A DNA stretch of 64,000 nucleotides. Source: an uncultured Verrucomicrobiota bacterium (GTDB lineage Bacteria; Verrucomicrobiota; Kiritimatiellia; RFP12; UBA1067). Positions 26,825 through 48,690 of this stretch are shown piece by piece (the stretch's first letter is position 1; each line of letters begins with the position of its first letter). The DNA lies in contig CAMOCC010000001.1 in assembly GCA_946610035.1 (NCBI GenBank), positions 35,948 to 99,947 of the forward strand, given 5' to 3'. Both the position numbers and the translations under genes were made by a program. The notes under the pieces were generated by a model. That model was not told the origin of the DNA. It did no database searches and saw nothing but the letters and a program-made list of their open reading frames with translations.

Positions 26825-28225
26825 TTGTCCGTGGCTACCAATTTCAAGACAAGGCTTATACGGCTTGCGACGGCGCTCATCCCTGCAAAGGGGGTGAGGA
26901 AGCGCATTCGCAGGCGGCTTCTGGACCGCGAGCGCGACGAAAGGGTTGCGCTGACTCTGCCGGGGGTCCGTGCCCGCTACGCCGCGCACGAGGCCGCGTG
27001 CCGTGCGAAGCTTGCGCGCGGCGAGCGGCTGTCAGTCGCCTTCCTCGTCTGCGACGCGTCCATGTTCTCGGGCGAGCCCGTCTTCCTGAAGATGCGCGAC
27101 GACGCGCGCTTCAGGCCGTTCATCGCCGTCGCCCCGCGCGTGACGAGGGGAGACGAATTCCTGCGCGAAACGCTCGACAAGACCGCGGGTGCGCTGGAAG
27201 GGCGCTATCCGGGGGCGGTGGTGCGGCTCTACGACCCCGCCACCGGGCGGAGGGAGCGCCTTGATGCGGACGTCGTTTTCTCCACCGTGCTCTACGAGGA
27301 CCAGACGTATCCCGACTGGACGACTGAGAGGCTTTCGGAACGCTCGCTTGTCGCGATACTCTACTACGGCTACGGCGGACTCTTCTTCACGAACGAGAGG
27401 AAGACGCCGTTCCTCCCGAACATCGTCCTCTCCTGGCGCTATTTCGTGTCCAACGAGGCGACCAGGGCGATGAGCGCCGCAAAGAACCCGCTCCTCTCGC
27501 ACAACACGTTCGCCGTAGGCTACTGCAAGATGGACAGGCTAGAAGAATGTAAAATGGAAAATGGAAAATGTAAAATGGGAAGAGGCGAATGCAGTGTAGG
27601 ACTTGCACCGGGGCCTGCGAGGAAGAAGGTGATGATATGTCCGCACCACTCCATAGACAGGGAGGCGGACGGCCTCGCGCTTTCGACGTTCCTCGAGCAT
27701 GCGGACCTCTTCAGGCGCCTTCCCGCGATGTTTCCGGATGTCGATTTCGTGTTCAGACCGCATCCGCTCCTCTTTCCGAGGCTCGCGACGGCGAAGTGGT
27801 GGGGGCCCGAGAGGACGGCCCGCTACGCGGCGGAGATGGAGGCGCATCCGAACGTGGAGTTCCAGAGGGGCGGCGACTACTTCGCGACGTTCGCCGGGTC
27901 GGACGCGCTCATCCACGACTGCGGGTCGTTCCTGGCGGAGTATTTCTACACGGGGAAGCCGCAGTGCTACATGCTGGCGGACGACGCCACGGTGGAGCGG
28001 CAGTTTCTGCCGTTCGCGAGGCGGCTTCTCGACCACGTGGAGCGCGCGTACACAGACGACGACATCGTCGCCTTCGTGCGACGGGTGGTCCTGGCGGGCG
28101 ACGATCCGCGCAAGGCGGGGAGGGAGGACTTCGCGGCGCGCGAGGTGTGCGTGAACCATCCGCATGCGGCGGCGGGCGTCGTCGATGCGGTTGTGAAGGG
28201 AATCAAACAAGAGGAGGTCAAATAA
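26825..28225 (+). CDS. TagF/TagB-like CDP-glycerol glycerophosphotransferase family protein (start TTG 26825 or GTG 26831). Internal 7-nt repeat tract.
   Basis: C-terminal half carries KKVMICPHHSID...FRPHPLLFPR motifs reminiscent of the Glyphos_transf domain. Low certainty on family. Confidence 0.4.
   Translation: MSVATNFKTRLIRLATALIPAKGVRKRIRRRLLDRERDERVALTLPGVRARYAAHEAACRAKLARGERLSVAFLVCDASMFSGEPVFLKMRDDARFRPFIAVAPRVTRGDEFLRETLDKTAGALEGRYPGAVVRLYDPATGRRERLDADVVFSTVLYEDQTYPDWTTERLSERSLVAILYYGYGGLFFTNERKTPFLPNIVLSWRYFVSNEATRAMSAAKNPLLSHNTFAVGYCKMDRLEECKMENGKCKMGRGECSVGLAPGPARKKVMICPHHSIDREADGLALSTFLEHADLFRRLPAMFPDVDFVFRPHPLLFPRLATAKWWGPERTARYAAEMEAHPNVEFQRGGDYFATFAGSDALIHDCGSFLAEYFYTGKPQCYMLADDATVERQFLPFARRLLDHVERAYTDDDIVAFVRRVVLAGDDPRKAGREDFAAREVCVNHPHAAAGVVDAVVKGIKQEEVK
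27545..27593. repeat. Heptanucleotide tandem repeat (GAATGTA/AAATGGA) x5-7 inside the TagF-like CDS, between its N- and C-terminal domains
   Basis: gaatgta aaatgga aaatgga aaatgta aaatggg (aagaggc gaatgca). Same repeat family as 24513-24568. Confidence 0.85.
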
Positions 28226-28227
28226 AG

Positions 28228-28668
28228 ATGAGCAAGACGATTATAGGCTATACGAGCGGGGTCTACGACCTCTTCCACATAGGGCATCTCAACCTTCTGA
28301 AGAACGCGCACGGGCTCTGCGACAAGCTGATCGTGGGCGTTTCTGTGGACGAGCTCGTGGCGTACAAGCACAAGAGGGCTGTTATCCCGTTTGCGGAGCG
28401 GCTGGAGATCGTCCGTTCGATCAAGTACGTGGACGCGGCGATTCCGCAGGACGACCTGGACAAGTACAAGATGTGGGAGAAGCTCCACTTCGACGTCCTC
28501 TTCGTCGGCGACGACTGGTTCAACACGCCGAGCTGGAAGGAGATGGAGGCCAAGTTCTCGAAGGTGGGCGTCAGGGTCGTCTACTTCCCGCGCACCAAGG
28601 GGACGAGCTCGACGATCCTCTCCGCTACGCTCAAGAAGCTGCGCGAGGGAGAGGGAGGGGCGGCATGA
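28228..28668 (+). CDS. HxGH-family cytidylyltransferase (glycerol-3-phosphate cytidylyltransferase TagD / CCT-ECT type)
   Basis: GYTSGVYDLFHIGHLNLLK (HxGH). RTKGTSST near the C-terminus. GAGGAGG SD. Confidence 0.8.
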   Translation: MSKTIIGYTSGVYDLFHIGHLNLLKNAHGLCDKLIVGVSVDELVAYKHKRAVIPFAERLEIVRSIKYVDAAIPQDDLDKYKMWEKLHFDVLFVGDDWFNTPSWKEMEAKFSKVGVRVVYFPRTKGTSSTILSATLKKLREGEGGAA

Positions 28669-29609
28669 GCCTTCTGGAGCGCAAGTACGAGAAGGGCCAG
28701 CTGGTGACGCGCCTTTGCGGCCTGCGCGTGTGGCGCAGCGCCGGGGAGCCGGGGCTGTCGCTGCAGTCGCAGCTGCTCAGGCGCGAACTGCTGACGGCCG
28801 CCGACATCGGGAACATGCCTCCGGCGCGGGGCTATTCGCGGGATGTCCAGCTCGCCGGCGTCGTGCTGCTCAAGGAGGTGCTGCGCGTCGCGCACGAGAA
28901 CGGATTCCATCCGTGGATGATAAGCGGGAGCCTTCTCGGGGTCGTCCGCCACGGCGGGAGGTTCGTGCCGTGGGACGACGACGTCGACGAGGGGATGATA
29001 CGCGAGGAGTACGACCGTTTCTGCGAGGTGTTCAACGAGAAGTGCCGCGAAGGTTTCTTCGCCTGGCGCCGCTTCTCGCGCAAGTGGAACCAGATCAAGG
29101 TCTCGCACCGCGAGCTGCCGAAGGACGTCACCGCGTCCATCATGTCCTATGATCGCTACTACGCCCCCCTCCCCGGGCTCAAGGAGAAGCACGAATTGTT
29201 CATGAAGGTGAGGTCCGCCCAGGAGCGCAACGCGAAGCGGTTCGATCCGCAGGCGGACGACGCCGCGCACCGCGCGGCGCTCGACCAGGCGAGGCGGGAC
29301 TGGATCATGGACGGCAGGGAGGCGGCGCCGGACGCGGCGAAACCGGCGATCTACCGCGGCGTCGAATTCTCCGTCGCCGGCTGGGTGAAGGAGGCCGCCT
29401 ACGATTACGACGACATATTCCCGCTTAAGTCCGCGACATTCGAGGGCGTCCCCGTGATGGTCCCGAACGACCCCGAGACGGTGCTCACGTACAACTACGG
29501 CGACTGGGCCGGATGGCCCGGACGCCTGGGGCCGCACCATCCGGCCTCGCGATTCAACATGGAGAAGGCGTTGTCGCTCAGGAGGTTCCTGGCGCGGCAC
29601 CGGGATTAG
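28665..29609 (+). CDS. LicD-family phosphotransferase (phosphocholine/phospho-alcohol transferase)
   Basis: ISGSLLGVVRHGGRFVPWDDDVDEGM matches the LicD signature. ATGA overlap. Confidence 0.7.
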   Translation: MSLLERKYEKGQLVTRLCGLRVWRSAGEPGLSLQSQLLRRELLTAADIGNMPPARGYSRDVQLAGVVLLKEVLRVAHENGFHPWMISGSLLGVVRHGGRFVPWDDDVDEGMIREEYDRFCEVFNEKCREGFFAWRRFSRKWNQIKVSHRELPKDVTASIMSYDRYYAPLPGLKEKHELFMKVRSAQERNAKRFDPQADDAAHRAALDQARRDWIMDGREAAPDAAKPAIYRGVEFSVAGWVKEAAYDYDDIFPLKSATFEGVPVMVPNDPETVLTYNYGDWAGWPGRLGPHHPASRFNMEKALSLRRFLARHRD

Positions 29610-29621
29610 GGGAGGGCGGCG

Positions 29622-30173
29622 ATGCTTGACGTGTTGACCGGAATTATGACATTCTGGGTCCTGCCCAGGTCCCGCCGTCTCAAGTGGCGGCGGCGGCTTG
29701 TCTCGTTCTGGCACGGCCTGCCGGTGAGGCGGCGCGCGAAGTCCGTCGGCAGGGGGCTTAAGTGCCATGGGCCCGTAAAGGTCACGCGCCACACCGTCGT
29801 CGGCGAGGGCGTTTCATTCAACGGAGCCAGGATACTTGGGACCGGCAACGTCGTCTTCGGCAACTACGTGCATTCCGGCGAGGGCCTTGTGATCTTCACC
29901 CGCAACCACAACTACAACGGCGGCGAGGCGATCCCGTACGACAGGACATACACGGTCAAGGATGTGACCATCGGCGACTTCGTCTGGATCGGCGCGTATG
30001 TGATCCTCCTTCCCGGCACGAAGATCGGGGAGGGCGCGATCATCCAGGCGGGTTCCGTCGTCCACGGGGAGATTCCGCCCATGGCCATCGCCGGCGGCAA
30101 TCCCGCAAAGGTCTTCGCCGAGCGCGACAGGGCGCACTTCCTTCGCCTTAAGGCGGAAGGAAGATTCCACTGA
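29622..30173 (+). CDS. Hexapeptide-repeat (LbH) sugar O-acetyltransferase
   Basis: Repeated [LIV]GxxxxI hexapeptides. C-terminal IAGGNPAKV. Confidence 0.7.
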   Translation: MLDVLTGIMTFWVLPRSRRLKWRRRLVSFWHGLPVRRRAKSVGRGLKCHGPVKVTRHTVVGEGVSFNGARILGTGNVVFGNYVHSGEGLVIFTRNHNYNGGEAIPYDRTYTVKDVTIGDFVWIGAYVILLPGTKIGEGAIIQAGSVVHGEIPPMAIAGGNPAKVFAERDRAHFLRLKAEGRFH

Positions 30174-30226
30174 ATGTCGTCGATCAAAAACCCGTAGCCG
30201 CCGGCGGAAAAGCCGGGGCCTGGCGC

Positions 30227-31033
30227 TTATCGCGCGTTATCCTCGTCGTCGTCGGGTTCCGGCGGCGTATAGTTTTCATCGAGCCACCTGTTCGCGGCGT
30301 CGATGTCGGTCCACTCTTCGCCCGTCAACTGTTCATATTCCTCCCGGGCGACACGAGCGCCGGCCTCGTTGCCGCTTTCAATGATTGAGACAAGGGACTC
30401 GAGTATCTCAAGGTCGTCGTCGCGGGATGTGATCTCGCTTACGATGCTGGTCAGCGCTTCGACGCTGTCGAGCGTCTTCATCGTCGCCTCGGCGATTGAC
30501 AATCGCAGGTCGTTGTCCTCGATGTCGCTCATTGCCAGCTCCCACTGGGATATAGCCGTGTTGGCCACATCGTCATCGGGGTCCGCCATCAACGGAGTCA
30601 GATCGGGAAGCGCCTGCGGACCGAACCACCCCAATGCCTCGATTGCCGCCTCACGAACGGCGGGGTTTGTCGACTTAAGCGCATGTTGAGCCGCGCTTGC
30701 AACAGCGGAGAAGTTGTCCTCGTCCAATGCGTCCTGGACTGACAGCACGATCTTGCGGTCGTCGGCGGAAAGTTCATCAAGAAACGCTTCAAAGCCTGGT
30801 TTTTCGCCCAACCGTGACTGTGGAATCCGCCGTTTGGAAACCACATCCTGCACTGCAGCTTTCGGGTCCTGCCGTCCCGGTTTCGGCTTGGACCGGATGA
30901 CTCGTCTGCCTGGATCGGGTTTAACCCGGCCGCTCTCGTCACCCGTCCCACGCTCCGTTTGATATAGGCATATAAGCCCTGCGGCGACGGTCGCCACCGC
31001 CAGGGCTGCCCAACTAACAGTCTTACGATTCAT
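30227..31033 (-). CDS. N-terminally membrane-anchored HEAT/ARM-like repeat protein with acidic C-terminus (paralog of 49133-50083)
   Basis: One TM helix, then repeated A.EALGW.G helical repeats and a DDDEDNAR tail. Confidence 0.5.
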   Translation of the reverse strand: MNRKTVSWAALAVATVAAGLICLYQTERGTGDESGRVKPDPGRRVIRSKPKPGRQDPKAAVQDVVSKRRIPQSRLGEKPGFEAFLDELSADDRKIVLSVQDALDEDNFSAVASAAQHALKSTNPAVREAAIEALGWFGPQALPDLTPLMADPDDDVANTAISQWELAMSDIEDNDLRLSIAEATMKTLDSVEALTSIVSEITSRDDDLEILESLVSIIESGNEAGARVAREEYEQLTGEEWTDIDAANRWLDENYTPPEPDDDEDNAR

Positions 31034-31043
31034 GTCCAGTATA

Positions 31044-32042
31044 TCAGTCGATGACGACCGGCCAGCTGGCCTTCAGTTTCTTGCAGGTTGCGATGCCTGT
31101 CGCCGTTTCGCCGTTGATGCGTCCGCTGACGTTGAACGAATACTTCTTGAGCTTTGGCTTGCCTTTCTCGATATTCGCCTCGTTGGTTGCATAGACCTTG
31201 AACGAACCGGTGAAAGTCGCCTTCTTGGAGTTGTACTTGAGTTTGAGACCGGATATGTTGGTCTTGTTCTCGTCGTCGAGGCCGATGAGTTCATACCACG
31301 TTTCGCCGTCTTCCTTGAATTTCTTGTACTTGATGCTCGGCGCCTTGCCGCAGTTCCAGCTCTTGGCGTTCGAGGTCACAATCTCGAGATCCGGAATCGT
31401 CTCGAAAATCAGGTCGTAGTCGTCGCTTGGCATCTCGTAGTCATCCGCTTCGACGGAGAAGGTATGCTGCCCGTGCACAAACGTCCCGTCGTCGTCATCG
31501 TCATCCGTCTCGTATTCGTCGGCGAATTCGTAGGCTCCCGCCTTGCCGCCGACCTCGCCGTCTGACGTAATTACCACCTCGACAGCTCCGAGGTTCTTGA
31601 CACTCGACCATGTAGCCGTGATTGTGCCGCCTTCATCGGGCGCGAATGCGGTTTTGGACGCCGTTGCGCTCTTGCCCGACGCCAGCTTGAAGGCGATCTT
31701 GACCGAAACCTTTCCCTTCTTCGACTTTTTGCTAGTCGTGATGGTTGCGAGACCTGCATAGGTGCCGTCTTCGTTCACGATGTAGGCCTGTTTCGTCATG
31801 GCCTTCGACCAGTCCGTCGTGCTCCAGCTGCCGCCCGACGACGAGCCTCCGCCCGACGACGAGCTCTCGTCTCCGCAGAACACGCAACCCGAGGAGGGCT
31901 TCGATGGTATGATGACAGGATCGTCGTCTATGACGATTTCGCCGCCGTTGCAGAACGCGCAGCCGTCGTAGACGGTCGTTTTCTTGGCCTGCGCCGCAAT
32001 CGCGACGGCGCCGAGCAGGGAGAGAAGAATCGCTTTTTTCAT
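31044..32042 (-). CDS. Secreted protein with two CxxC pairs and the shared Lys-rich C-terminal module
   Basis: Signal peptide MKKAILLSLLGAVAIAAQA. CAFC and CVFC. C-terminal LKLKYNSKKATFTGSFKVY...KKLKKYSF...GIATCKKLKASWPV. Confidence 0.6.
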   Translation of the reverse strand: MKKAILLSLLGAVAIAAQAKKTTVYDGCAFCNGGEIVIDDDPVIIPSKPSSGCVFCGDESSSSGGGSSSGGSWSTTDWSKAMTKQAYIVNEDGTYAGLATITTSKKSKKGKVSVKIAFKLASGKSATASKTAFAPDEGGTITATWSSVKNLGAVEVVITSDGEVGGKAGAYEFADEYETDDDDDDGTFVHGQHTFSVEADDYEMPSDDYDLIFETIPDLEIVTSNAKSWNCGKAPSIKYKKFKEDGETWYELIGLDDENKTNISGLKLKYNSKKATFTGSFKVYATNEANIEKGKPKLKKYSFNVSGRINGETATGIATCKKLKASWPVVID

Positions 32043-32084
32043 AGCCTTGTCCTTTCTTGTAGATGGGTTTTGGTGGGCGTTCGG

Positions 32085-32963
32085 TTATTCGCCGAGAGTC
32101 TCGGCAATTTTTGCGGCAACCGCAGCTTTGACCGTTGCGGGGAATTTCTTGTAGACGTCGAGAATGGAGGTTGAGTTGCGGAGCTTCTTCGACAGCTGGG
32201 AGTTGTATTTGATCGACCACGTGCCGGACACCGCCGTGAAGTCGACGTCGCCGAATTCTGCGCAGTCGCAGAAGTTCCAGGCCGTGGCATAGTCAACTTC
32301 GTCTTCCTCGTCCTCCTCGGCGTTGCAGAACGTGCAGACGCCTTTCTTGCCGGGCGTCGTGACGGAGGGAGCCGGCATCCATCCGGCGACATTGCCCGAG
32401 ATTGTCTTGACGTAGCTCATGCAGTCGGCAAGCACAAGGTTCCCGTCCGCCTTCTCCGTGCTCAGGACAAGGGAGCCGAACCCGGCGAAGGAAAGGAATG
32501 CGTTGGAGCTGTCGCTTGAGTCTCCGATCGTCCAGGCCCCCTCGCACTTCGTCCCGTTCTGGTCGATGGCGTTGAGCAGCCGCCAGTGTATGTCCTCGTC
32601 GAAGACGATCGTGTTGGGGCTTTTCTTGTCCCAGATGACGCATCCCGCGACGATTCCCATGCTCTGGTTTATGACCGTCCAGTTGCCGAGGATGGCGTCG
32701 CAGCTGCATCCCCAGATGACGCCGTTCCAGGTCTGCGACCCCTGCGTGCGGTAGACGATCGTGCCGGTTTCGTCGACGAATGCGTTCTTGCCGGCCGAGA
32801 TGGACGACTTCTTGGCCGAAGTGGTCTTGATCGTGATCTTGACGTCGTAGACCTGTGCGGCCTTGTCGTCTTCGGCATTGCCGAACGCGGCGGGAGTCGA
32901 GCAGCAGACGCCGGCGGCGAGTGCGATTAGCATGGTGGTGTGTTTCATGGTATGTTCCTTCAT
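32085..32963 (-). CDS. Secreted Cys-rich 'IWGCDCE' family protein (paralog 1)
   Basis: Signal peptide. AQVYDVKITIKTT, VIWGCSCDAILG, SGNVAGW, CTFCNAEEDEED, SGTWSIKYNSQLSKK. Confidence 0.6.
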   Translation of the reverse strand: MKEHTMKHTTMLIALAAGVCCSTPAAFGNAEDDKAAQVYDVKITIKTTSAKKSSISAGKNAFVDETGTIVYRTQGSQTWNGVIWGCSCDAILGNWTVINQSMGIVAGCVIWDKKSPNTIVFDEDIHWRLLNAIDQNGTKCEGAWTIGDSSDSSNAFLSFAGFGSLVLSTEKADGNLVLADCMSYVKTISGNVAGWMPAPSVTTPGKKGVCTFCNAEEDEEDEVDYATAWNFCDCAEFGDVDFTAVSGTWSIKYNSQLSKKLRNSTSILDVYKKFPATVKAAVAAKIAETLGE

Positions 32964-34564
32964 TTGTTGTGTTTGGGTTTTGTCCTTGAAGCTCTGCGCC
33001 TGGACGCGGGTGGCTTTGCCGGACGGTAGACCGCGCCGTCCGTGTCCGTAATCACCGCCCCCGCGCTGCCTGCACCCGGACGGCTCAGGCGCTTGCCGTC
33101 CTCGAAGACGAAGACGGGCCCGCCATCGTTGGCAGCCTCTTCCCGGAGGAATCCGTCTTGCGTATTTTTCTCGCTCCGGAACGCCTTGCGGCGGACGAGA
33201 CGGATGTTACCATGGCTTGAAATGGTAATCTCGGAATTGCCGTCTTCCGCAACGAATTTTCCTGTGGCCCATTCGGGAAGCGGCTCGACGCGAAACAGCA
33301 CCCGCCGCGGTACGCGCAGCCCGCCGGTTCGCTGCGTGAATGTGAATGTCGCGGTATAGGACCCCGGTTTGGTCGCGCACCCGGAAAGGACGCGGCCCTC
33401 GGCGTCGCAGGAGAATCCCGGCGGGATGCGCGCAGCTTGCAGGCGCACGTCGTTCGAAACGCCTCCAAGCGCGAATGTGCGCCGCACGCCGCATCGCAGG
33501 GCGATCGCCCCGTCCCGCATTCTCGGAACGTTCCCGTCTTCCAGCAACGCGAAGGCAAGCTCGCTCGCGAACCTTGCATCGGTTTGCGTCGGCTTTGCCG
33601 CGCGGTACTGCGCGATAATAGGACAGGTCGCGATCAGCGTCCGTGTGTTGTCGTTTGTCGGCGTACCCACGGGAATGTCGCGTACGACTGTGCCGTTGTC
33701 GGCCGTGAACGTCAGCGCATAGTCCGGCGAGGAGAAGAACGGCAGTATGACGCCGTCCTTCTCCTCGGGGTACCCTGTTACCGTCGTGAGCGGCGTGTCG
33801 CCGGCGCGGAAACGGTAGGCGGATGACCACGGGTGAAGCTGCGGCCCGGGCGTTTTGTGCTGCGTATCGCTGTGGCCTGCGCCGAAAAGGTGCCCGATTT
33901 CGTGCATCAGTGTGTGGCGTTGTTCGATTGCATCGATCCGACAGGCGCAATAGGCCCTCTCGGAGAGCGCGTCCAGATCGCCGGCGGCCAGCTGGTCGTG
34001 GTAGATGGAAGTGGCGTAGCCGTAGATGTTGGGTGTTTTGCTGGTCGTGAGGATGGCGACGATATCGGCATGGCTGGCATCGCGCGCCGCCCGGATGTGT
34101 TCGGCCGTCTGCGCATCGAGAGCTGGCGTCGCACCCAGTGTAGGGGCAAAAGCCGCGACGATTTCCGTTAGCTCATGCGCGCCGAAATCCAGCGGCGAGA
34201 CGTCCATCACGTCCGCCAGGCGGAACGTGAAGCGCCGGTCGATGCCCGTGTACGCCAGCGATGCGTTCAGATCGTCCACACACGCCTTGGCGTAGCCTTC
34301 CGTGGCGTGTCCGGCGGCTGCGAGATGATTCTGTGCGGACGCATCGAACACGAGTAGAACGTCGACCACATTGGTCTCCGTATCCCCGCCGTACCAGTTC
34401 GGCGCGAGAGGCAATGCCGCCGCCTGCGAACCGTCAGATTCCGGACGTCGGGCCAGCGTCCAGTTCTCCGCCGCGCACAGACCGCCTGCCAGCAAGACTG
34501 TGGTTAGAAGCGCGCCTTTCACGGCACCTCCTTTCTGGCGGGTTCTAGCACCTTGGAAATCCAT
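32960..34564 (-). CDS. Secreted metzincin-type zinc metalloprotease (possible GTG start at 34522)
   Basis: HTLMHEIGHLFGAGHSD (HExxHxxGxxH). Confidence 0.65.
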   Translation of the reverse strand: MDFQGARTRQKGGAVKGALLTTVLLAGGLCAAENWTLARRPESDGSQAAALPLAPNWYGGDTETNVVDVLLVFDASAQNHLAAAGHATEGYAKACVDDLNASLAYTGIDRRFTFRLADVMDVSPLDFGAHELTEIVAAFAPTLGATPALDAQTAEHIRAARDASHADIVAILTTSKTPNIYGYATSIYHDQLAAGDLDALSERAYCACRIDAIEQRHTLMHEIGHLFGAGHSDTQHKTPGPQLHPWSSAYRFRAGDTPLTTVTGYPEEKDGVILPFFSSPDYALTFTADNGTVVRDIPVGTPTNDNTRTLIATCPIIAQYRAAKPTQTDARFASELAFALLEDGNVPRMRDGAIALRCGVRRTFALGGVSNDVRLQAARIPPGFSCDAEGRVLSGCATKPGSYTATFTFTQRTGGLRVPRRVLFRVEPLPEWATGKFVAEDGNSEITISSHGNIRLVRRKAFRSEKNTQDGFLREEAANDGGPVFVFEDGKRLSRPGAGSAGAVITDTDGAVYRPAKPPASRRRASRTKPKHNK

Positions 34565-36378
34565 CCGGGAATGTAGAGTTCCGCGCCGGGAACGATATCG
34601 ACCCAGGTCCTTTCGCGCCCATACTGCGTATCGAACTGCGCGGCGAACTCGCCAATCGCAAGCCGGACTTCCGAGCCGGACGACAGGGTGTACGGAACGG
34701 CATCAGGCGCAAACGGCGGCGAGAGAAAGATCGTCCGCCGCGCATGGCAGTAGGCTCCATCGCCCAGATGTTTCGCACGGTGCTTGAGATAGCGCGCCGC
34801 GCCCCTACCGGCAGCCACAAGGCGATCGACGGCATTGGGGAGTTCGTCCGGATTGTTGACGACGAGCACGGAACCAGCATCCGGCGTCGCATGGATTCCA
34901 TCGCGCAGCTCATGCCCGAAGCTGCCGATGGCGTCGCCTGCTAATACTGCGTCGTCACGAATGATGGCCGTATGCACGTCACCACGACCGATGCGAACCG
35001 TGCCGCCATCACACGCAACGGGAATCTCGCGGGCGTCCGCCTGACGGCGACCAATGGCTTCGAGTGCCAGAACCGTGAGGCACCCCAAAACGACCGCGAT
35101 GGCGAAAAGGAGGGCGAGACGCCGACGGGTCGCGCCGCTGCCGCCCTGTGCCAGCTCTTTGCCGACGACGACAAGCACCGCTCCGCCGCAGAGCGCCGGG
35201 AGAATCCACAACGTCGGGAAGATGCCGACGGTGCTGAACCAGAGCGAAACGGCAAACGCACTCCAGACGGCCAGCGCAACCTGGACTGTTTTGCGTCGTG
35301 CAAAGGCGAAAAGGAGCATGAACAGCATCAGCCAGGCCGACACATAGGCGCAGCGGAAGACGCGTCCGTACTGCACCATCCAAGTGAGATGGCTGTTCAC
35401 GAGATAGTAGAGACGGTGATTGTCGGAAGGGGCCTGGAACCAGTCGCAGTATGCGCGGCCGGGTTCATCGCCCCAGCCTTCGGGCGCAACCGCCATCATC
35501 TCGGGTGCTGCGGCCCAGCATCTGAGCCGTTGCACGTTGCCTTCATCCACGGAAAGCAGGTTCGCGCCAAAACGTCCGTCCGTCATCTTCCCGACGGCAA
35601 AAAGGGCGACACCTCCCAGAAGAACGGTAAGCATGGTGCCCAGCAGGACCCTTTTCCCCCCAAGACGCGGAACGAAGTGCACAAGCGCCGTGATGGCGAT
35701 GCCGAGGATAGACGCGATAAACGATCCGCGCGAGCCGGTTAGAATCAAGGCGACGAGCGCGGCTGCCGAGGCTCCCAGACACGCTAGGCGTACACCGCAC
35801 CGCCGCCAAACGAGGGCGAATGCGGCAAACAGCGCCGCAATCTCCGCAAAGAGCGTGCCGGCGGCATTGGGGTTGAAGTATCCGAGTCTGAGACGCGCGC
35901 CGTCACGCCACCAACTGGCTTTTTCCGCCTTGTCCCGTTCGGCCGAACGCGGACGCCAGAGCTGCTGAAGAGTCGGCGGCCTCTTGGGATGGGCGGAAAG
36001 GAAGGCGAGATCCTTCGCCTTCCGGTTTTCATCGCCTTCACGCCGGAAACTTCTGAGTCGGCCTTGCGTGAAGACAAGCGTCGCCGCCCCGGCATCAAGA
36101 AAATTGCGATGATGAACGTCGATGCGACCATCCGATTCCTCCATTGCCGTGGCTTCGTGCGACTGCCATGTGCGTTTGCGCGCGCCGGGGCGCGCGTCGA
36201 AGGACATGACGGGGATCGACGCATACTTGAGGACAAGTCGGTCCTTCCCGCCCGGCGCCAGATAGAAATCCGACACGCCTGCCGCGGTCCCTTCGCCCAC
36301 CGGGATATCGTATCCGAAGGCGGGAAGCGCGGCAAGCGCAAGGCAACTCAGGATCTTTCTGGCGCAAGAACCAATCAT
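34519..36378 (-). CDS. Wzy_C-domain (O-antigen-ligase / PglL-like) polytopic membrane protein
   Basis: Many TM helices. LILTGSRGSFIASILG resembles the Wzy_C TxSRG motif. C-terminal VPGAELYIPGW is shared with the paralog at 46911-48680. Confidence 0.55.
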   Translation of the reverse strand: MIGSCARKILSCLALAALPAFGYDIPVGEGTAAGVSDFYLAPGGKDRLVLKYASIPVMSFDARPGARKRTWQSHEATAMEESDGRIDVHHRNFLDAGAATLVFTQGRLRSFRREGDENRKAKDLAFLSAHPKRPPTLQQLWRPRSAERDKAEKASWWRDGARLRLGYFNPNAAGTLFAEIAALFAAFALVWRRCGVRLACLGASAAALVALILTGSRGSFIASILGIAITALVHFVPRLGGKRVLLGTMLTVLLGGVALFAVGKMTDGRFGANLLSVDEGNVQRLRCWAAAPEMMAVAPEGWGDEPGRAYCDWFQAPSDNHRLYYLVNSHLTWMVQYGRVFRCAYVSAWLMLFMLLFAFARRKTVQVALAVWSAFAVSLWFSTVGIFPTLWILPALCGGAVLVVVGKELAQGGSGATRRRLALLFAIAVVLGCLTVLALEAIGRRQADAREIPVACDGGTVRIGRGDVHTAIIRDDAVLAGDAIGSFGHELRDGIHATPDAGSVLVVNNPDELPNAVDRLVAAGRGAARYLKHRAKHLGDGAYCHARRTIFLSPPFAPDAVPYTLSSGSEVRLAIGEFAAQFDTQYGRERTWVDIVPGAELYIPGWISKVLEPARKEVP

Positions 36379-36390
36379 CTACCGAATGTC

Positions 36391-39300
36391 CTATTTGATT
36401 TCGACCGGGAAGCTTCGCTTCGCGGTCTTTCCTCCAAGGCGATCCGAGAAAAGGCAATGGCCGAGGCCGAACGCCACATTCTCCATTTCAATCAGCTCGT
36501 CGTTGTCCTCGCCGCAGTCGCAGTCGCTGAACCAGCCGCGTGTGAGTACGCCCGTGAACTTCGCCGATACCCGGGCCTTGCCTTCGAACGAGAGTGTCGA
36601 TTTCCCGGTGAAGACGCCCGTTGAACGGTTCAACTTGAACGAGAACCCTGTCGCCTTCGTTGCGGTGGCGCTGGAATCCGTGATGGTCACAACCGCGCCC
36701 TCGCCGGCCACATGCATGAGCTCTCCCCAGGCCGGACTCGGCGCGACGGACTCCGTCACGGGCGCAAACTGCAACGCCAGCGTTTCGTCGTCGATGCCGA
36801 CAAGCAGCGAATCGTTCTTGTCATACCAGCTCCCGCGTACGGCAAAGGTGCGCGTAAACGATCTTCCCTTGGTTTTATTCGTCCAGACGGCCTCGGTGCC
36901 GTCCTGCGCGATGACGGCGCGGGTCGACGGGGCGTCCCCGGCGTTGCGCCGTACCTTCAGCACAGCCGCGAACGTTTCGACGCCGACCGTGCGCAACACG
37001 GGCACAATGCCGAAGTTGGCGTCCACCCACGTTACGCTGGACGACCCCGTCAGCGTCTTGCCGTCGGGAAGGTGGATCGTGTATTTAAACTGTCCTTTCT
37101 TTTTCGCCGTCGTCGTCGCGGCCATCTTCAGTGTCATGACGGCATCTCCTGCCGGTTCTGTCGTCGACGCGTTGTCGACAGACGGAAACGCCACGGTGTA
37201 TACGCCGGAAAATGCGCCATAGCTCTCGGCGAGGCCGCATTCACCCGAAGCAAGTGTGCTTGTGCCGTCGTCGACTTCAGCGGCCACAACGCCGTCTGCT
37301 CCCATGACCAGCGAAAGGGTGAAGTTCTTCTTGGTCAAAAGGGCGGTCGCGGTGCCGTCGGCGGCTATGTCGTCGTCCCACTTGCCCGTGAACAGGGCAA
37401 GACTGCCTCCGCCCGCCGAATACTTGGCAGAGATCCTTCCGTTCTTTTTCAGCGACAACGCAAGGAGCCCTTTGAGCGTCGTGCCGTCGGACGCATAGAG
37501 CGGCAACGTCGTCGTCAGGGCCTTGGATGTCCAGTCGTTTGTGAACGGATTGTCTATGGCTTTGCGCGAACCAGCCAGCGTGTAGGCCGTGACGGTGCTC
37601 GCGGCGGACGCGTCGGCCGCAAGCGTCCCCGAACCTTCGCCCACGACCGAAACGTAATAGTTGCCTCCCGTGGATGATATGACGCCCGTCGCGCTCACGC
37701 CGTCTGAAAGGCGTCCCGTGGCAGTCGCCACCGTGCGCGCCGTACCGCCGACGACTTCTATGATGCTGACGGTCGCCGTTGTGTTGGCGTCGCTGCCGCT
37801 GACGGTGATTGTCTGCGAAGCCGCCGCTGCGGAAGTCGCGGCAAGGCGGTATGTGTCGGCGAGGTCGAGCGCTGAAAGCGTCGCGGTCGTTGCGGTGTCG
37901 CCCGTGAACGAATCATTCGTCGTCTGCCAGGAACGGTTGTCCAGATCTCCGTCGCCGTTTGCGCCCATCTCCACCAGCTCCGTGAAACGCTGGAGGTATG
38001 CCGCATTGAACTCGGAAGGACCAATCGCGTCGAACGTCTCGAACGTCCCCGCGAGTTTGCCGTCGCGCGTCAGCGCGAAGAAGTTCGGGATGCCCGTGCG
38101 GTTCTGGTTGGCGCGGTTCGGGTCGTTCCAGCCCCCGTTCAGCGTGTTCTGGCCGACAAGCGACCGGTTGCGGTTCAGTGTCGCTTGCGCGGCGGCATCC
38201 GAGACCATGTGGCGCGAAAGGTAGCCGGCGCCGCTCTGGTAGCGTTCGAGCTCGTTTGTCGCCAGCGTGCCGCGGCCCGAGATGTAGCCGTCGCTAGTGC
38301 GGCCGACGACGCGCGTCAGCAGGCAGGCGGAATTCGTCGTATTCGGGAAGTTGGGCACGTCGATGTCGACGAGAATAACCTTGTTGTCAACGGCCCATTC
38401 CTTGAAAGCCGTGGTTTCCAGTACATGTTCGTCGGTCATCACGCAGTCGGGGCACCAGAGTGAACCACTGGCCACGGCCATCAGGCGCGAATCGGGTTCG
38501 TTGCGGTATTTTTCCATCGCCACGTCCAGGTCCATCGTCCATTCGCCGTAATCAAGCGTCGCGGCGGTGCGCTCGCCGATGAAGAAGGGGTTCTTCGTCG
38601 AGTTCTCCCGTTCGCCCACGAGGAAGATGCGGACGCGTCCGCGCGCGTTCCCGGTTTCGTCCAGGAGCGCGAGGGCGATCGCGCCGCCGGCTTTCGCCGA
38701 TTCCGGCACGGCGACGCGCACGGTCCGCGCGGTTTGATTCTTCTGCCAGGCGACCGTCGCGCGCTGTATTTCCTGGCCGCCATAGGTGGCCGTTAACGTG
38801 TTCGTGGCCGCAAAAGCAGCCGCCGCAGCGTCACGCACGAGCGGAACATCGACGTATTTCGTGAAACCGACCTCGGCCTCCAGTCGCGCGTGTTCATATT
38901 CGGACGTAAACAACAGATCGCCGCCGAGATAATCGGGAATTGGCGCGTACCCGGCGAAGAAGGACTCGGCGCGGCTCTTGAGCGTCGCGGCGCTGTCGGT
39001 GGTAAAGCTTGTCGCCGCCACGCCGCTGGCCTTGGGCCAGTAGAGGCAGAGGTACGGATATCTCGATGGCGTCTTTGTCGCGGTGCCGGCCGCTTTCCCG
39101 GCGAAATTCTTGACGACGGACGTGCCGTCCGGATCCTTGCCGTTTTTCCCGAGAACGAAACAGAACAGATAGCCGGACGCGTCCATCCACTGCGTAAACG
39201 ACGACGATTGCACGTCCGCTTCCAGCGCCGCGCAGTGGCTGCAGCCGGTGTTCGCCCAGAAGACCACGAGCGGACGATGCGCCGTGACGGCGGCGTTCGT

Positions 39301-39417
39301 CGCGGCGACGAAATCGGCATCCCAGCCAGGCAGAGTCGCACCCGCGACGCCAGAGGAGGACACGCCAAGTCCTATCGCAAGGACGAGCGCTGACAAAAGA
39401 GGGGGTTTTGTTCTCAT
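36391..39417 (-). CDS. Large (1008 aa) secreted protein with two thioredoxin-like CxxC modules and the shared Lys-rich C-terminal module
   Basis: Signal peptide. VVFWANTGCSHCAALE and MAVASGSLWCPDCVMTDEH. C-terminal ...KSTLSFEGKARVSAKFTGVL... Confidence 0.55.
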   Translation of the reverse strand: MRTKPPLLSALVLAIGLGVSSSGVAGATLPGWDADFVAATNAAVTAHRPLVVFWANTGCSHCAALEADVQSSSFTQWMDASGYLFCFVLGKNGKDPDGTSVVKNFAGKAAGTATKTPSRYPYLCLYWPKASGVAATSFTTDSAATLKSRAESFFAGYAPIPDYLGGDLLFTSEYEHARLEAEVGFTKYVDVPLVRDAAAAAFAATNTLTATYGGQEIQRATVAWQKNQTARTVRVAVPESAKAGGAIALALLDETGNARGRVRIFLVGERENSTKNPFFIGERTAATLDYGEWTMDLDVAMEKYRNEPDSRLMAVASGSLWCPDCVMTDEHVLETTAFKEWAVDNKVILVDIDVPNFPNTTNSACLLTRVVGRTSDGYISGRGTLATNELERYQSGAGYLSRHMVSDAAAQATLNRNRSLVGQNTLNGGWNDPNRANQNRTGIPNFFALTRDGKLAGTFETFDAIGPSEFNAAYLQRFTELVEMGANGDGDLDNRSWQTTNDSFTGDTATTATLSALDLADTYRLAATSAAAASQTITVSGSDANTTATVSIIEVVGGTARTVATATGRLSDGVSATGVISSTGGNYYVSVVGEGSGTLAADASAASTVTAYTLAGSRKAIDNPFTNDWTSKALTTTLPLYASDGTTLKGLLALSLKKNGRISAKYSAGGGSLALFTGKWDDDIAADGTATALLTKKNFTLSLVMGADGVVAAEVDDGTSTLASGECGLAESYGAFSGVYTVAFPSVDNASTTEPAGDAVMTLKMAATTTAKKKGQFKYTIHLPDGKTLTGSSSVTWVDANFGIVPVLRTVGVETFAAVLKVRRNAGDAPSTRAVIAQDGTEAVWTNKTKGRSFTRTFAVRGSWYDKNDSLLVGIDDETLALQFAPVTESVAPSPAWGELMHVAGEGAVVTITDSSATATKATGFSFKLNRSTGVFTGKSTLSFEGKARVSAKFTGVLTRGWFSDCDCGEDNDELIEMENVAFGLGHCLFSDRLGGKTAKRSFPVEIK

Positions 39418-39490
39418 TGGATTATTCCTTTCATGTTAACTTGTTGTTATTGTTGTTTGTGTTTTGCATTCACCCCTCTATACAAAAATC

Positions 39491-40639
39491 TCAGAATAAC
39501 GCCGGTTGTGCAGCCGTCCGTTTCGCATCTTCAAAAATCTTTTCGCCGCTTGGATATGTAGGCGGATTTTTCGTGGCGAGATCTGCGATGAATTCATTGA
39601 ACAGTCGGTTCTGCCGCGCCTCGCGAATCTCCTTGGCGAACGCAGCGTCGTCAAGTTCGGGATAGAACTCAGGCAGATGGAAAAAGATGCGGCTAAGCGA
39701 GTAGACGGCGCGTCCGTCGCTTTCGACCTGCTTGTCGTCGACCCTGAGGATCATGAGCCCGTTGTCGCCTTCGACGGGCGGCGAGATGTTCCCGGACTCC
39801 ATCCGCGAAAGCGTCTTCGCGAGGACGGGGCTGTCGTTGAAATAATCCAGCGCGAAATCGCCCCATATGCCATCGTCCGTATCCGTTTCGTCGGTGGAAT
39901 ATTTCCGCACGGCGTCGCCGAAGGCGAGCTCGCCGTTTTCGATGGCGCGCCAGACGTTGGTCGCCTGCGCGAAAGTGAAATCGTTGGTGGCCGCGGCCAT
40001 TTGGTTGTAATTGCGCTGGCGTTGGCGAAGGCGGGCGATTTCCTCGTCCGTCACCTTCGCCGGACGGTTTGCGGCGTGCCACATGCGTACGCTCTCGGTG
40101 AGCGCTTCGATCCGGATGCGTTCGTCCAGTGTCGCGCGCTCGTCAGCGGTGAGCTTGCGCACGAACGACGGCCACGACGAAAAATCCTGTTTCGCGCTTT
40201 TCATCGCGCGCGCCCGCATAAGGTCAATCTCGTTCCGTCCCGCGGCTATGCCGTTTGTGGCGGCGAATTCCCTTACGGCGCAGTCGCGGGGGAATCCAAC
40301 CGGAACGGCGGCGAGCACGCGCGCGCCGAGAGCGTCGCGCAGCTGGAGGTTCTGTCCCTTTGGAAGCGACAGCTGCACCATCTTGACGCGCAGATCAATC
40401 AAACGGTCGGCCTCGGCCTTCGTGAGTGCGTTCGTGCCGCAACGGATGAGCACGGCGTCGTCAGCCAGATTCGTCCGCGCAGCCCGCGTCTTTGATTTCT
40501 TGGCACGATCACCGGTTTGTACGCCTGCGGGTGAAGCCGCATCCGCTTCGGGCTGCTCGCGCGAACACCCCGCGACAAGCAGAAGCGGCACGACAACGGA
40601 AAGCAGGAATTTTCTCGTGATGTTCATGTTCATGCGCAT
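39491..40639 (-). CDS. SurA/PrsA-like parvulin-type peptidyl-prolyl isomerase lipoprotein
   Basis: Lipobox LLVAGCS. PPIase/chaperone-like architecture. Paralog of 44533-45585. Confidence 0.5.
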   Translation of the reverse strand: MRMNMNITRKFLLSVVVPLLLVAGCSREQPEADAASPAGVQTGDRAKKSKTRAARTNLADDAVLIRCGTNALTKAEADRLIDLRVKMVQLSLPKGQNLQLRDALGARVLAAVPVGFPRDCAVREFAATNGIAAGRNEIDLMRARAMKSAKQDFSSWPSFVRKLTADERATLDERIRIEALTESVRMWHAANRPAKVTDEEIARLRQRQRNYNQMAAATNDFTFAQATNVWRAIENGELAFGDAVRKYSTDETDTDDGIWGDFALDYFNDSPVLAKTLSRMESGNISPPVEGDNGLMILRVDDKQVESDGRAVYSLSRIFFHLPEFYPELDDAAFAKEIREARQNRLFNEFIADLATKNPPTYPSGEKIFEDAKRTAAQPALF

Positions 40640-40645
40640 GGGTTT

Positions 40646-40683
40646 AGCCTGAAAAGGGGAATCGAGAAACCCCGATTCCCCCT
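40646..40683 (-). terminator. Rho-independent terminator after the left 'IWGCDCE' gene
   Basis: Minus-strand AAGGGGGAATCG-gggtttct-CGATTCCCCTTTT. Ends only ~12 nt before the next ATG. Confidence 0.6.
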
Positions 40684-40712
40684 TTGGCGTTCAGTAAGAA
40701 CGTATGGTTGGA

Positions 40713-41720
40713 TTACGACGCGTCGCCGCAGCTGGTCAGGAACAGAAGAGCGTTGACAACGTCGTTGTCGCCCTCATACTCTTCAGGCTCCATGTCTGCG
40801 CCATCGACGGTCGCGGTTGTGTAGGCCGCAACTGCGACGTCAGCAGCATCGACATACTCGCCGAACTGCTCACCTTCCTCCTCGACGGGCCAGAGTTCGT
40901 CATCGTCGTCGGAGGAGAGAGCGCCAGCAGCTGCGGCAGCCTCGATGCGCGTGACGAGCGTCTCGGCATCAGCAGTCTTCTTCGAGAACTTGAAGGACTT
41001 GCTGAGACGACCAGTCTTGCGGAGCTTTTGGGACGCAGACTTGTTGTACTTGATCTTCCAGGATCCGTACGCGGCCGTCAGGTCGGTGTCGTAGTACGCC
41101 GCCGTGCAGGGGCAGACCTGCCACGCGGTGCAATCGCTCTCGCCGCAGAACTTGCAACCGCCAGCCTCGGAGCCCGCGAGCAGGAAGCCTGCGAAGTTGC
41201 CGGACATGCTCGACAGGATCGTACGGCAGGTCGTGCCGCTAACCTTGCCGAAGCCAGCGCCGAGAAGCGCGACGGTGTTGTCGGCGTCCCAGTTGCGGAG
41301 GAGCCACACGCCCTCGGCCTTGTCGCCGGTGTCGATGCGGTTGAACGCGGCCCAGCCGAAGGTCGTGGAGAAGATGTTGAACACATTGTCCGCCCCGACA
41401 TTCCAGAAGAGGTAGCCGCCGACGGTCGTGCCGTTGTTGTAGGTGCGCCATGCGGGATCGGCGATCGTTTCGCAATCGCATCCCCAGATCACACCGGCGA
41501 TCTTCGTGGTGCCCTGCTTGCGGACAGCAATCTTCTCACCCTTGACGTCAGAATAGTCTTCACCCTCAAGCGTGGCGATCGTCTTGGTGTACTTAATCTC
41601 CTTGCACGCGGTGGACTTGACCGTCAGCGAGACGTCGTAGACCTGCGCATCCAGGGAGGTGGCTGCAAAGGCACCCGCACCAATGGCAGCGGTCGCTGCA
41701 GCAATCATGAGTTTCTTCAT
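40713..41720 (-). CDS. Secreted Cys-rich 'IWGCDCE' family protein (paralog 2, left target of the switch)
   Basis: MKKLMIAAATAAIGAGAFA. AQVYDVSLTVKST, GVIWGCDCETIADP, SGNFAGF, CKFCGESDC, GSWKIKYNKSASQK. Acidic C-terminal tail. Confidence 0.65.
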   Translation of the reverse strand: MKKLMIAAATAAIGAGAFAATSLDAQVYDVSLTVKSTACKEIKYTKTIATLEGEDYSDVKGEKIAVRKQGTTKIAGVIWGCDCETIADPAWRTYNNGTTVGGYLFWNVGADNVFNIFSTTFGWAAFNRIDTGDKAEGVWLLRNWDADNTVALLGAGFGKVSGTTCRTILSSMSGNFAGFLLAGSEAGGCKFCGESDCTAWQVCPCTAAYYDTDLTAAYGSWKIKYNKSASQKLRKTGRLSKSFKFSKKTADAETLVTRIEAAAAAGALSSDDDDELWPVEEEGEQFGEYVDAADVAVAAYTTATVDGADMEPEEYEGDNDVVNALLFLTSCGDAS

Positions 41721-41988
41721 TGTTTCTTTTTCCTTTTGCTTATTCGTTCGGCTTGGCGGACTTCCGCGTTGCCTCCCCCGGAGCTACCCGGTCGATCCAT
41801 TTGTTCCGGCGGTATCTTGCCGACCCACTTTGTTGCACCCGCGTGAGCACGGTCGACACACATGTTATGCCATTCAGCAGATTCGGGACGGTTTGAGTTT
41901 CACACCCCTCTTCCACCGACTCCTGTAGAGCAATTTGCGGGTCAACTTTCATTGAGCCCGGTTTTTCCTAGGCCCGGACACAATGTCC
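41690..41988. repeat. Left arm of ~295-bp inverted repeat (IR-L). Includes the 5' leader and first ~10 codons of the left family gene.
   Basis: Its reverse complement matches 43384-43680 almost base-for-base (about 5 mismatches near the ATG). Inner end is the palindromic GGACACAATGTCC. Confidence 0.9.
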
Positions 41989-42106
41989 GTGCCGGAGGCG
42001 TGTTTGTTTGCACCAAAGGCAAGTTTTTCTAAAGCAACATCAAACTGAGAAACTAGTGTTGAGGCTGACGGCCCCGTCATAGGGTGACTTTTTGGGCTTT
42101 GCCCTT

Positions 42107-43312: not shown

Positions 43313-43358
43313 CGATACCCCCTTGCGCAACGGGGGTAAAATGTGGTACAATATTGTC
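43313..43358 (+). promoter_or_regulatory. Strong sigma70-type promoter inside the invertible segment: -35 TTGCGC, 18-nt spacer, TGgTACAAT. Near-duplicate of the rpsL promoter module at 11895-11945.
   Basis: cccTTGCGCaacgggggtaaaatgTGgTACAATat versus cccTTGCCAaacgggggcaaaatgTGgTAAACTat. Confidence 0.6.
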
Positions 43359-43383
43359 GCTTCCGTGGAACAGGGCGGGTTTC

Positions 43384-43680
43384 GGACATTGTGTCCGGGC
43401 CTAGGAAAAACCGGGCTCAATGAAAGTTGACCCGCAAATTGCTCTACAGGAGTCGGTGGAAGAGGGGTGTGAAACTCAAACCGTCCCGAATCTGCTGAAT
43501 GGCATAACATGTGTGTCGACCGTGCTCACGCGGGTGCAACAAAGTGGGTCGGCAAGATACCGCCGGAACAAATGGATCGACCGGGTAGCTCCGGGGGGAG
43601 GCGAAGCGGAAGTCCGCCAAGCTGAACGAAAAAGCAAAAGGAAACAAAGAAACAATGAAGAAGCTCATGATTGCTGCCGC
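43384..43680. repeat. Right arm of ~295-bp inverted repeat (IR-R). Includes the 5' leader and first ~10 codons of the right family gene.
   Basis: See IR-L. Inner end GGACATTGTGTCC. Confidence 0.9.
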
Positions 43681-48680: not shown

Positions 48681-48690
48681 CATGAAGAAG

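Follow-up and report, generated by a model that had tools for sequence, protein, structure and literature searches.

A large undescribed family of cysteine-rich proteins in a Kiritimatiellia envelope operon with a putative promoter switch

At positions 32085–32963 of a 64,000-nucleotide stretch of contig CAMOCC010000001.1 (hereafter ‘the window’, meaning the whole of that stretch), which belongs to an uncultured Verrucomicrobiota bacterium of the class Kiritimatiellia, an open reading frame (ORF) encodes a protein that the original prediction, made from the letters alone, grouped with three other products of the window as a novel secreted, cysteine-rich family. What kind of family is this, and what are four of its genes doing around a single recombinase gene? 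Kiritimatiellia are common in rumen and hindgut communities; to our knowledge hardly any have been cultured, and almost nothing has been described of their cell envelope. We find that the four ORFs are paralogs in a large, undescribed family restricted to Kiritimatiellia, and that this family has a fixed place in a conserved operon for the cell envelope, alongside partners of the foldase and redox types. What is new is the sequence family; the meander-barrel fold class and the invertible-promoter logic discussed below are of already known kinds.

Four paralogs and the extent of their family

We refer to the ORFs at 32085–32963, 40713–41720, 43655–44440 and 50135–50944 as A, B, C and D, respectively. 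All four are present where they had been predicted. The prediction had named no strands; A and B (292 and 335 amino acids) are on the minus strand and C and D (261 and 269 amino acids) on the plus strand, and the four products can be aligned across their entire length. In pairwise BLASTP comparisons D matches A with E = 2e-34 (33% identity) and C with E = 1e-10 (27% identity), and B matches C with E = 3e-5 (25% identity). A hidden Markov model built from the four, searched against all six reading frames of the window, detected no fifth member. We regard the four genes as real because they are conserved across species and because ratios of nonsynonymous to synonymous substitution (dN/dS) of 0.11–0.22 were obtained against a 96%-identical strain.

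The features by which the family had been described were recovered for most, though not all, of its members. A signal peptide ending in AFA or AWA, ascribed to all four, is found in B, C and D, whose N-termini begin MKK(L/M)M and whose signal peptides (MKKLMIAAATAAIGAGAFA, MKKLMIAAAVAAMTAGAFA and MKKMMVMAAFAVFGSIAWA) match that description; A has a longer N-terminus, ending AAFG. Likewise, the shared motifs stand in A, B and D, which carry AQVY[DE], G[VL]IWGC[DS]C, [SN]GN[FIV]AG[WF], a CxxC pair and G[ST]W[KS][ILM]KY. C is a true but divergent member with altered motifs: WVCDY replaces WGCDC, the CxxC is absent, and the protein contains 13 cysteines.

Beyond the window, a single-sequence search with D returned 102 proteins, and a profile search with an alignment of 52 family members that takes D as its reference (alignment A2) returned 220, none of them with a precomputed Pfam domain. 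The wider database search that had been proposed for the family, carried out here as an exhaustive HMMER profile scan of 1.84 billion cluster representatives (clusters at 50% identity), gave 453 representatives at E ≤ 1e-3 and 292 at E ≤ 1e-10, the named ones all unannotated proteins of Kiritimatiellae. The source names of family members are without exception ‘hypothetical protein’, and the organism, where given, is Kiritimatiellae. When one genome per species was scanned, 15 loci emerged, all of them in metagenome-assembled genomes labelled Kiritimatiellae/Kiritimatiellia or ‘uncultured Verrucomicrobia’ that came from gut and rumen, the host animals being cattle, goat, yak and horse.

The family domain lies at the N-terminus of every member matched in the HMMER scan. 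Longer members, of up to 567 amino acids, continue into a helical extension rich in Ala, Glu and Lys that has a short Cys...Cys motif at its end. In the metagenome members P0143, P0150, P0155 and P0187 these C-terminal extensions measure 250–300 amino acids, are probably coiled-coil and finish in a conserved Cys-x(5–7)-Cys (for example, ETACLVAKGSKDCQ). A Pfam scan of the C-terminal extensions of 10 long members found no domains.

The suggestion that the family corresponds to no described domain was upheld in each of the collections searched. None of the four paralogs had a match at curated threshold in Pfam, NCBIfam or PADLOC; among the 52 aligned members no Pfam family was matched by more than two, and every match fell below threshold. 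A sequence-profile search of the PDB gave nothing credible, its very weak match to the zinc-ribbon protein bL32m (E = 0.42) not being significant, and Foldseek against the PDB gave nothing useful, with template modelling scores below 0.25. In the literature we found nothing specific on phase variation or cysteine-rich envelope proteins in Kiritimatiellae. Two resemblances within the window were also considered and rejected. Homology to the ‘KLKYNxKxGxFxGSFKVY’ C-terminal module of neighbouring gene products received an hhalign probability of 0.4%, and homology to the ‘GWFSDCDCGED’ stretch of a 1008-amino-acid neighbour, or to any neighbouring family, received at most 8%; in both cases the resemblance is purely local.

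Predicted barrel fold and conserved cysteines

AlphaFold2, run on alignment A2 with D as the reference, produced a confident model (predicted local distance difference test score, 82; predicted template modelling score, 0.78) in which long antiparallel strands are accompanied by two helices at the C-terminal end and by a Cys-rich hairpin region (residues 180–220) that is modelled with less confidence. On this prediction the core, of approximately 240 amino acids, would be a meander beta-barrel whose interior is rich in aromatic residues and Gly, with the Cys-rich hairpin as an insert and the two helices following. As in small outer-membrane barrels, the predicted meander is antiparallel and eight-stranded. 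Set against OmpA, OmpX, PagL and NspA, the calycins avidin and lipocalin, and the TbpB, fHbp and Slam-dependent lipoprotein barrels, the family shows at most 14% identity and no family-level match. Its Cys-rich insert, IWGCDC motif and C-terminal helices have no counterpart in known eight-stranded meander barrels, and the GxW signature of lipocalins is in the first strand, whereas the G-T-W of this family is in the last.

Inspection of the alignment columns of 150 distinct members revealed that the two faces of the predicted strands differ in character. On one face, 11 conserved glycines are in phase with hydrophobic and aromatic residues that are likewise conserved. The opposite face carries conserved Lys, Arg, Glu and Thr (approximately 12 conserved Lys/Arg versus 4 acidic residues) together with the near-invariant W68, W97, F144 and W174. 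The last strand of the barrel contains the motif with the highest conservation, G-T-W-K-L-K-Y, and across 52–150 homologs W68, G69, C70, C72, C190, C193, C212, C214, G225 and W227 are invariant or nearly so; variation concentrates in the predicted loops. Charged residues make up 28% of the mature protein. We read this as a soluble barrel in which aromatic residues would form a packed core and external elements would be docked onto it.

Six cysteines are 93–98% conserved: C70 and C72 (in IWGCDC), C190 and C193 (the CxxC, which falls in a predicted beta-hairpin) and C212 and C214 (a CxC). C157, C45 and C47 are partially conserved, and the protein carries 8–12 cysteines in all. Zinc-ribbon and rubredoxin-type sites have two CxxC knuckles, or four cysteines placed such that they bind one metal ion; this family has one CxxC and two CxC. 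In divergent subfamilies, where the alignments are uncertain, replacement of C72 by Tyr is paired with replacement of C193 by Pro, and replacement of C70 by Gln with loss of C212, the remaining core cysteines being retained. That core cysteines are altered in pairs is a hint that they may be disulfide partners.

A conserved operon around a putative promoter switch

To describe the surroundings of the family we used proteins of the window as queries on the 15 genome loci and counted partners within 10 kb. Thirteen of the 15 loci contain at least two partner families, and nine contain both a leader and an internal family gene. The typical co-directional order begins with the leader member, a PpiC/SurA-like isomerase, a thioredoxin-like protein, a Wzy_C protein and further secreted proteins, and continues with a HEAT protein, the internal member, a second thioredoxin-like protein, another HEAT protein and an M12-like metalloprotease. 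Such an operon spans 10–15 kb, and the family is usually present in two copies, a promoter-proximal leader and an internal one.

Two adjacencies recur within this order. The SurA/PpiC-like gene always follows the leader copy, and a thioredoxin gene with the motif WCPxC adjoins the internal copy in the window and at loci L007, L009, L011, L012, L014, L015, L017, L018 and L019. Each operon encodes two or three of these secreted thioredoxin-fold proteins, whose sites, WCP[YH]C or another CxxC, are conserved across species; the CxxC is kept in 9 of 9 and 11 of 12 orthologs. Their thioredoxin domains find their best NCBIfam match in chlamydial DsbH (E = 1.6e-10), at 41 bits against a cut-off of 190, a below-threshold match that may serve as a lead and does not establish membership. 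DsbH, a periplasmic oxidoreductase resembling thioredoxin, comes from another lineage of the Planctomycetes–Verrucomicrobia–Chlamydiae (PVC) superphylum and, according to PMC5193440, had not been reported from organisms other than chlamydiae. The linkage of the family to secreted thioredoxin-fold proteins with CxxC motifs points to thiol-disulfide chemistry.

In the window there are two such operons, arranged head to head and led by B (leftward) and C (rightward). The original prediction had taken two of the four members to be the alternative outputs of an inversion switch, and this proposal is supported and can be extended: B and C are the first genes of the divergent operons, and A and D lie further down. 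Both flanking gene arrays are tightly spaced and contain no convincing internal terminators, which would put A into one presumed transcription unit with B, and D into another with C, and make all four paralogs outputs of the switch.

Between the two leader genes, a 1393-nucleotide segment bounded by inverted repeats contains a tyrosine recombinase gene (42107–43216, minus strand; PF00589 Phage_integrase, E = 9e-16). The left repeat arm (41665–41989) and its mirror image on the right (43383–43710) are identical over 215 nucleotides (41775–41989 and 43383–43597); beyond these they remain 92% and then 82% identical through the 5' untranslated regions (5'UTRs) and the first ∼19 codons, encoding the signal peptide, of B and C. 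Each arm has a palindrome at its inner end, CGGACAcaaTGTCCG (41975–41989) on the left and CGGACAttgTGTCCG (43383–43397) on the right; the right-arm palindrome is conserved at L026 and L027, and the inner-end palindrome CGGACAnnnTGTCCG is conserved across an alignment of four species. A sigma-70-type outward promoter is predicted on the plus strand at 43323–43352, with a −35 element TTGCGC (43323–43328), an 18-nucleotide spacer and an extended −10 element TGgTACAAT (43344–43352). It has an A/T-rich tract upstream, lies just inside the repeat, and both of its elements recur at the same position in the recombinase-proximal ends aligned from four species. In the orientation of the window this predicted promoter faces the right operon (C through D). 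The locus thus combines the inverted repeats, recombinase and outward promoter of an invertible-promoter switch, the promoter having been recognized from sequence alone. The predicted transcripts of both operons would have in common a 5'UTR of ∼295 nucleotides from the inverted repeat (43383–43654 and 41721–41989); an Rfam search of this shared 5'UTR and of the switch region returned no match.

Cassettes of other species were located through metagenome homologs of the recombinase. Their comparison shows the operon to lie under a putative recombinase-driven promoter switch in at least four species, with two operon versions around the switch in this genome and at L027. The latter has the same head-to-head architecture, in which two divergent operons flank a recombinase bounded by inverted repeats of ∼125 nucleotides; one of its operon leaders is C-type, and the other is a 294-amino-acid Cys-rich protein of marginal similarity (hhalign E = 2e-4, probability 45%). 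The recombinase gene and the C-type gene point the same way at L026 and L027, whereas they diverge in the window and at L014 and L037, so both relative orientations occur in nature. The L026 contig (2014 nucleotides) breaks exactly at such a repeat, and both it and the L004 contig (1453 nucleotides) have an end at the inverted repeats that flank the recombinase gene. Such breaks are expected from a repeat or from a segment present in two orientations, and inversion is not thereby proven.

A close strain (L021; ERZ27280318 k141_386361; 96% nucleotide identity) lacks window positions 30189–43161, as compared with its own positions 2952–3015. The deletion takes the left operon and most of the recombinase; it spares the right operon in full, together with the promoter region and the first 55 nucleotides of the recombinase gene. 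That the promoter-bearing end is kept beside the right operon fits a promoter there that drives the retained genes, and L021 looks like a ‘locked’ deletion derivative.

The individual genes of the two operons are as follows. In the left operon, which is transcribed from the minus strand, leader B consists of the barrel domain and an acidic C-terminal tail of ∼90 amino acids. It is followed by a PpiC/SurA-PrsA-like peptidyl-prolyl isomerase, a predicted lipoprotein (39491–40639); the 1008-amino-acid secreted protein, with a thioredoxin-like domain (WCPDC; also GCSHC) and a C-terminal module shared among several proteins of the locus (36391–39417); a polytopic membrane protein of the Wzy_C (O-antigen-ligase) type (34519–36378); and an M12B/reprolysin-like zinc metallopeptidase (HEIGHLFGAGH; 32960–34564), whose stop is overlapped by 4 nucleotides by the start of the internal paralog A. 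A 332-amino-acid secreted protein with the shared C-terminal module (31044–32042) and an N-terminally anchored HEAT-repeat protein (30227–31033) complete the operon.

In the right operon, on the plus strand, leader C is followed by its own PpiC/SurA-like peptidyl-prolyl isomerase (44533–45585), a secreted thioredoxin-like protein (GCPKC) with the shared C-terminal module (45609–46883), a second polytopic membrane protein of the Wzy_C (O-antigen-ligase) type (46911–48680), a 157-amino-acid secreted protein that is mostly shared C-terminal module (48682–49155) and a HEAT-repeat protein (49133–50083) directly upstream of the internal paralog D. Adjoining D, in an adjacency that recurs in other genomes, is a secreted thioredoxin-fold protein (WCPYC) with the shared C-terminal module (51012–52820), and beyond it an M12-like metallopeptidase (HEIGHVMGCGH), again with that module (52855–54720). 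The two isomerases differ at their N-termini: the left one has a lipoprotein-type signal (..LLLVAGC), its counterpart on the right an ordinary signal peptide. Directly left of the left operon, at 26825–30173, lie a glycerophosphotransferase-like gene, a cytidylyltransferase (its Pfam assignment taken from L021), LicD and a hexapeptide acyltransferase; given these genes of surface-glycan or teichoic-acid type, the switch locus borders a cell-surface polysaccharide region.

Interpretation of the family and its operon

The explanation that we consider best overall, and to which we give an even chance of being right in full, joins the family, its barrel fold and the envelope operon with thiol-handled exported clients and a promoter that toggles between two operons. 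The barrel proteins, each predicted to be exported by the Sec pathway, would be clients or structural products of the operon, bound for the periplasm, the outer envelope or the cell surface. The co-encoded thioredoxin-fold enzymes would act on their cysteines, by oxidation, by isomerisation or by keeping them reduced, and the co-encoded prolyl isomerase would help them to fold. Two anciently diverged operon versions face each other across a 1.4-kb cassette, and inversion of that cassette would shift the promoter from one to the other, such that the cell would make either B and A or C and D.

Several observations weigh against this explanation. A generic promoter scan did not list the proposed promoter, whose −35 element matches at 3 of 6 positions; the single site that it did list drives the recombinase, and the count is no higher than in shuffled sequence. 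Both orientations were not seen in one population, this assembly being the only one recorded for the strain, and for the opposite orientation the records hold only the same contig and a 1.45-kb contig that breaks at the repeats. With respect to the operon, the family member P0071 stands alone beside dxs, and locus L016 has no partners. The sole evident cue to cellular location is the signal peptide. Finally, an even-number bias of cysteine counts is absent among 258 full-length members (134 even, 124 odd), which is at odds with a purely intramolecular disulfide protein and leaves room for free or intermolecular thiols, or for metal ligation.

Of the other explanations, an integral outer-membrane barrel is one that we consider unlikely. 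The protein would then resemble OmpA, OmpX or PagL, with 8–10 strands, C-terminal helices or a coiled-coil tail in the periplasm, and the adjacent SurA-like protein as a dedicated chaperone. The invariable position of the SurA/PpiC-like gene after the leader copy would suit it, as would the helical extensions of long members, the substitution of hydrophobic-face residues within the hydrophobic class, and the loose similarity of G-T-W-K-L-K-Y in the last strand to the beta-signal of outer-membrane proteins. However, the 11 conserved glycines are in phase with the very face that would meet the lipid, strands 5–7 offer only two to four hydrophobic positions, and the would-be lumen has to accommodate the excess of conserved Lys/Arg over acidic residues along with four near-invariant aromatics. 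The cysteine content and the fraction of charged residues are unusual for small outer-membrane proteins, and no outer-membrane protein family appeared among the Pfam matches of the 52 members at E values up to 1. It is quite unlikely, in our estimate, that the six core cysteines instead form a metal site (a zinc or copper thiolate cluster, or an iron-sulfur centre) in a periplasmic metal-binding or redox protein. Spacings of CxC, CxxC and CxC resemble those of metallothioneins or zinc knuckles, and the position of the CxxC in a predicted hairpin, the unbiased cysteine counts, the weak bL32m match and hosts that are gut anaerobes, in which disulfide formation may be less assured, all lean the same way. 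Against these stand the tight linkage to secreted thioredoxin-fold CxxC enzymes and a search in which no metal-binding family was detected and the PDB match was not significant, while the paired changes of core cysteines, which are more usual for disulfide partners, are a weak argument against one shared metal site.

A carrier in the manner of the calycins lipocalin and avidin, or of YceI, would bind a small hydrophobic or glycolipid ligand, such as an undecaprenyl-linked glycan, and exchange it with the Wzy_C protein; co-occurrence with the Wzy_C gene and the bordering LicD, hexapeptide transferase and glycerophosphotransferase-like genes speak for it. We nonetheless find it very unlikely, given that the sequence searches returned no match to lipocalin, avidin or YceI, that conserved Trp, Phe, Tyr and aliphatic residues crowd the predicted interior in a way that suggests a filled core and not a cavity, and that two copies per operon and coiled-coil-tailed variants better fit a structural role. 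The view taken in the original prediction was that these are variable surface antigens or adhesins. In its fuller form they would be hypervariable and shaped by diversifying selection, with the switch serving antigenic variation. This view could draw on the placement of the genes under an invertible promoter, on the variability of the predicted loops and on the deep divergence between leaders of different operon classes (25–27% identity, and marginally detectable at L027). A dN/dS measurement, which had been proposed as a check among the paralogs and was run here on C and D against L021, gave 0.22 for C, the leader, and 0.11 for D, the internal gene, within the range of nine neighbouring genes (0.09–0.26). 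Taken gene-wide these values are no higher than those of the neighbours and indicate purifying selection, with no sign of hypervariability. Within one operon class, moreover, leader genes show conservation equal to or greater than that of their neighbours (L012 and L014 scores), and this, combined with the divergence between classes, fits discrete alternative versions rather than hypervariable antigens. No adhesin-type domain occurred among the matches and no evidence of surface exposure was found, and the switch exchanges whole operons of at least eight genes rather than this protein alone. We therefore regard diversifying selection on a surface antigen as highly improbable.

Returning to the explanation in terms of exported, thiol-handled barrel proteins, the nearest parallel is in the chlamydiae, which also belong to the PVC superphylum. 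Their envelope proteins MOMP, OmcA and OmcB are cysteine-rich and accompanied by the periplasmic oxidoreductases DsbA and DsbH (PMC549562, PMC6752827, PMC4217174, PMC5193440), and chlamydial envelope proteins are disulfide cross-linked (PMC5193440, PMC6752827, PMC4217174). Exported Cys-rich proteins are found in both systems, with envelope association and dependence on thioredoxin-fold enzymes being proposals in the present case; disulfide cross-linking and outer-membrane location belong to the chlamydial side of the comparison. Unlike the chlamydial proteins, the barrel family has no sequence or fold relationship to MOMP or OmcB, and unlike DsbH the thioredoxin proteins of this locus are large fusions, far below the DsbH cut-off. 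A more ambitious proposal, which we put forward as a doubtful one, is that the barrel proteins could be building blocks of a redox-controlled, disulfide cross-linked envelope layer, hitherto unknown, in PVC bacteria that live free in the gut. This functional counterpart of the chlamydial cysteine-rich outer membrane complex would be assembled by DsbH-like oxidoreductases, the SurA-like chaperone and the Wzy_C-type ligase and exchanged as a whole by promoter inversion.

The putative switch belongs to the general class of invertible-promoter switches (PMC5903667, PMC11868660). It resembles E. coli fimS with FimB and FimE, the capsule promoters of Bacteroides and the RecV switches of C. difficile in having a promoter segment bounded by repeats and a tyrosine recombinase. 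Unlike in those systems, the invertible segment itself contains the recombinase gene, and the repeats are of unusual length (a perfect 215 bp, ∼325 bp in all) and take in the 5'UTR and signal-peptide codons of both flanking genes. In contrast to on/off switches that control one operon, the promoter here appears to toggle two complete divergent operons of at least eight genes each.

Families without an assigned function are common; what distinguishes this one is its size, its place in a conserved envelope system of a poorly known gut phylum, and the unusual toggle between two operons. With at least 453 clusters at 50% identity it is unannotated, and it marks a conserved envelope operon that has its own folding and redox enzymes. 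Even without an assigned function there remains a well-delimited protein family, which offers a new domain model for annotation and targets for structural work and for surveys of phase variation in metagenomes. The switch points to a phase-variable feature of the envelope of these bacteria, one that may bear on their interactions with phages or hosts.

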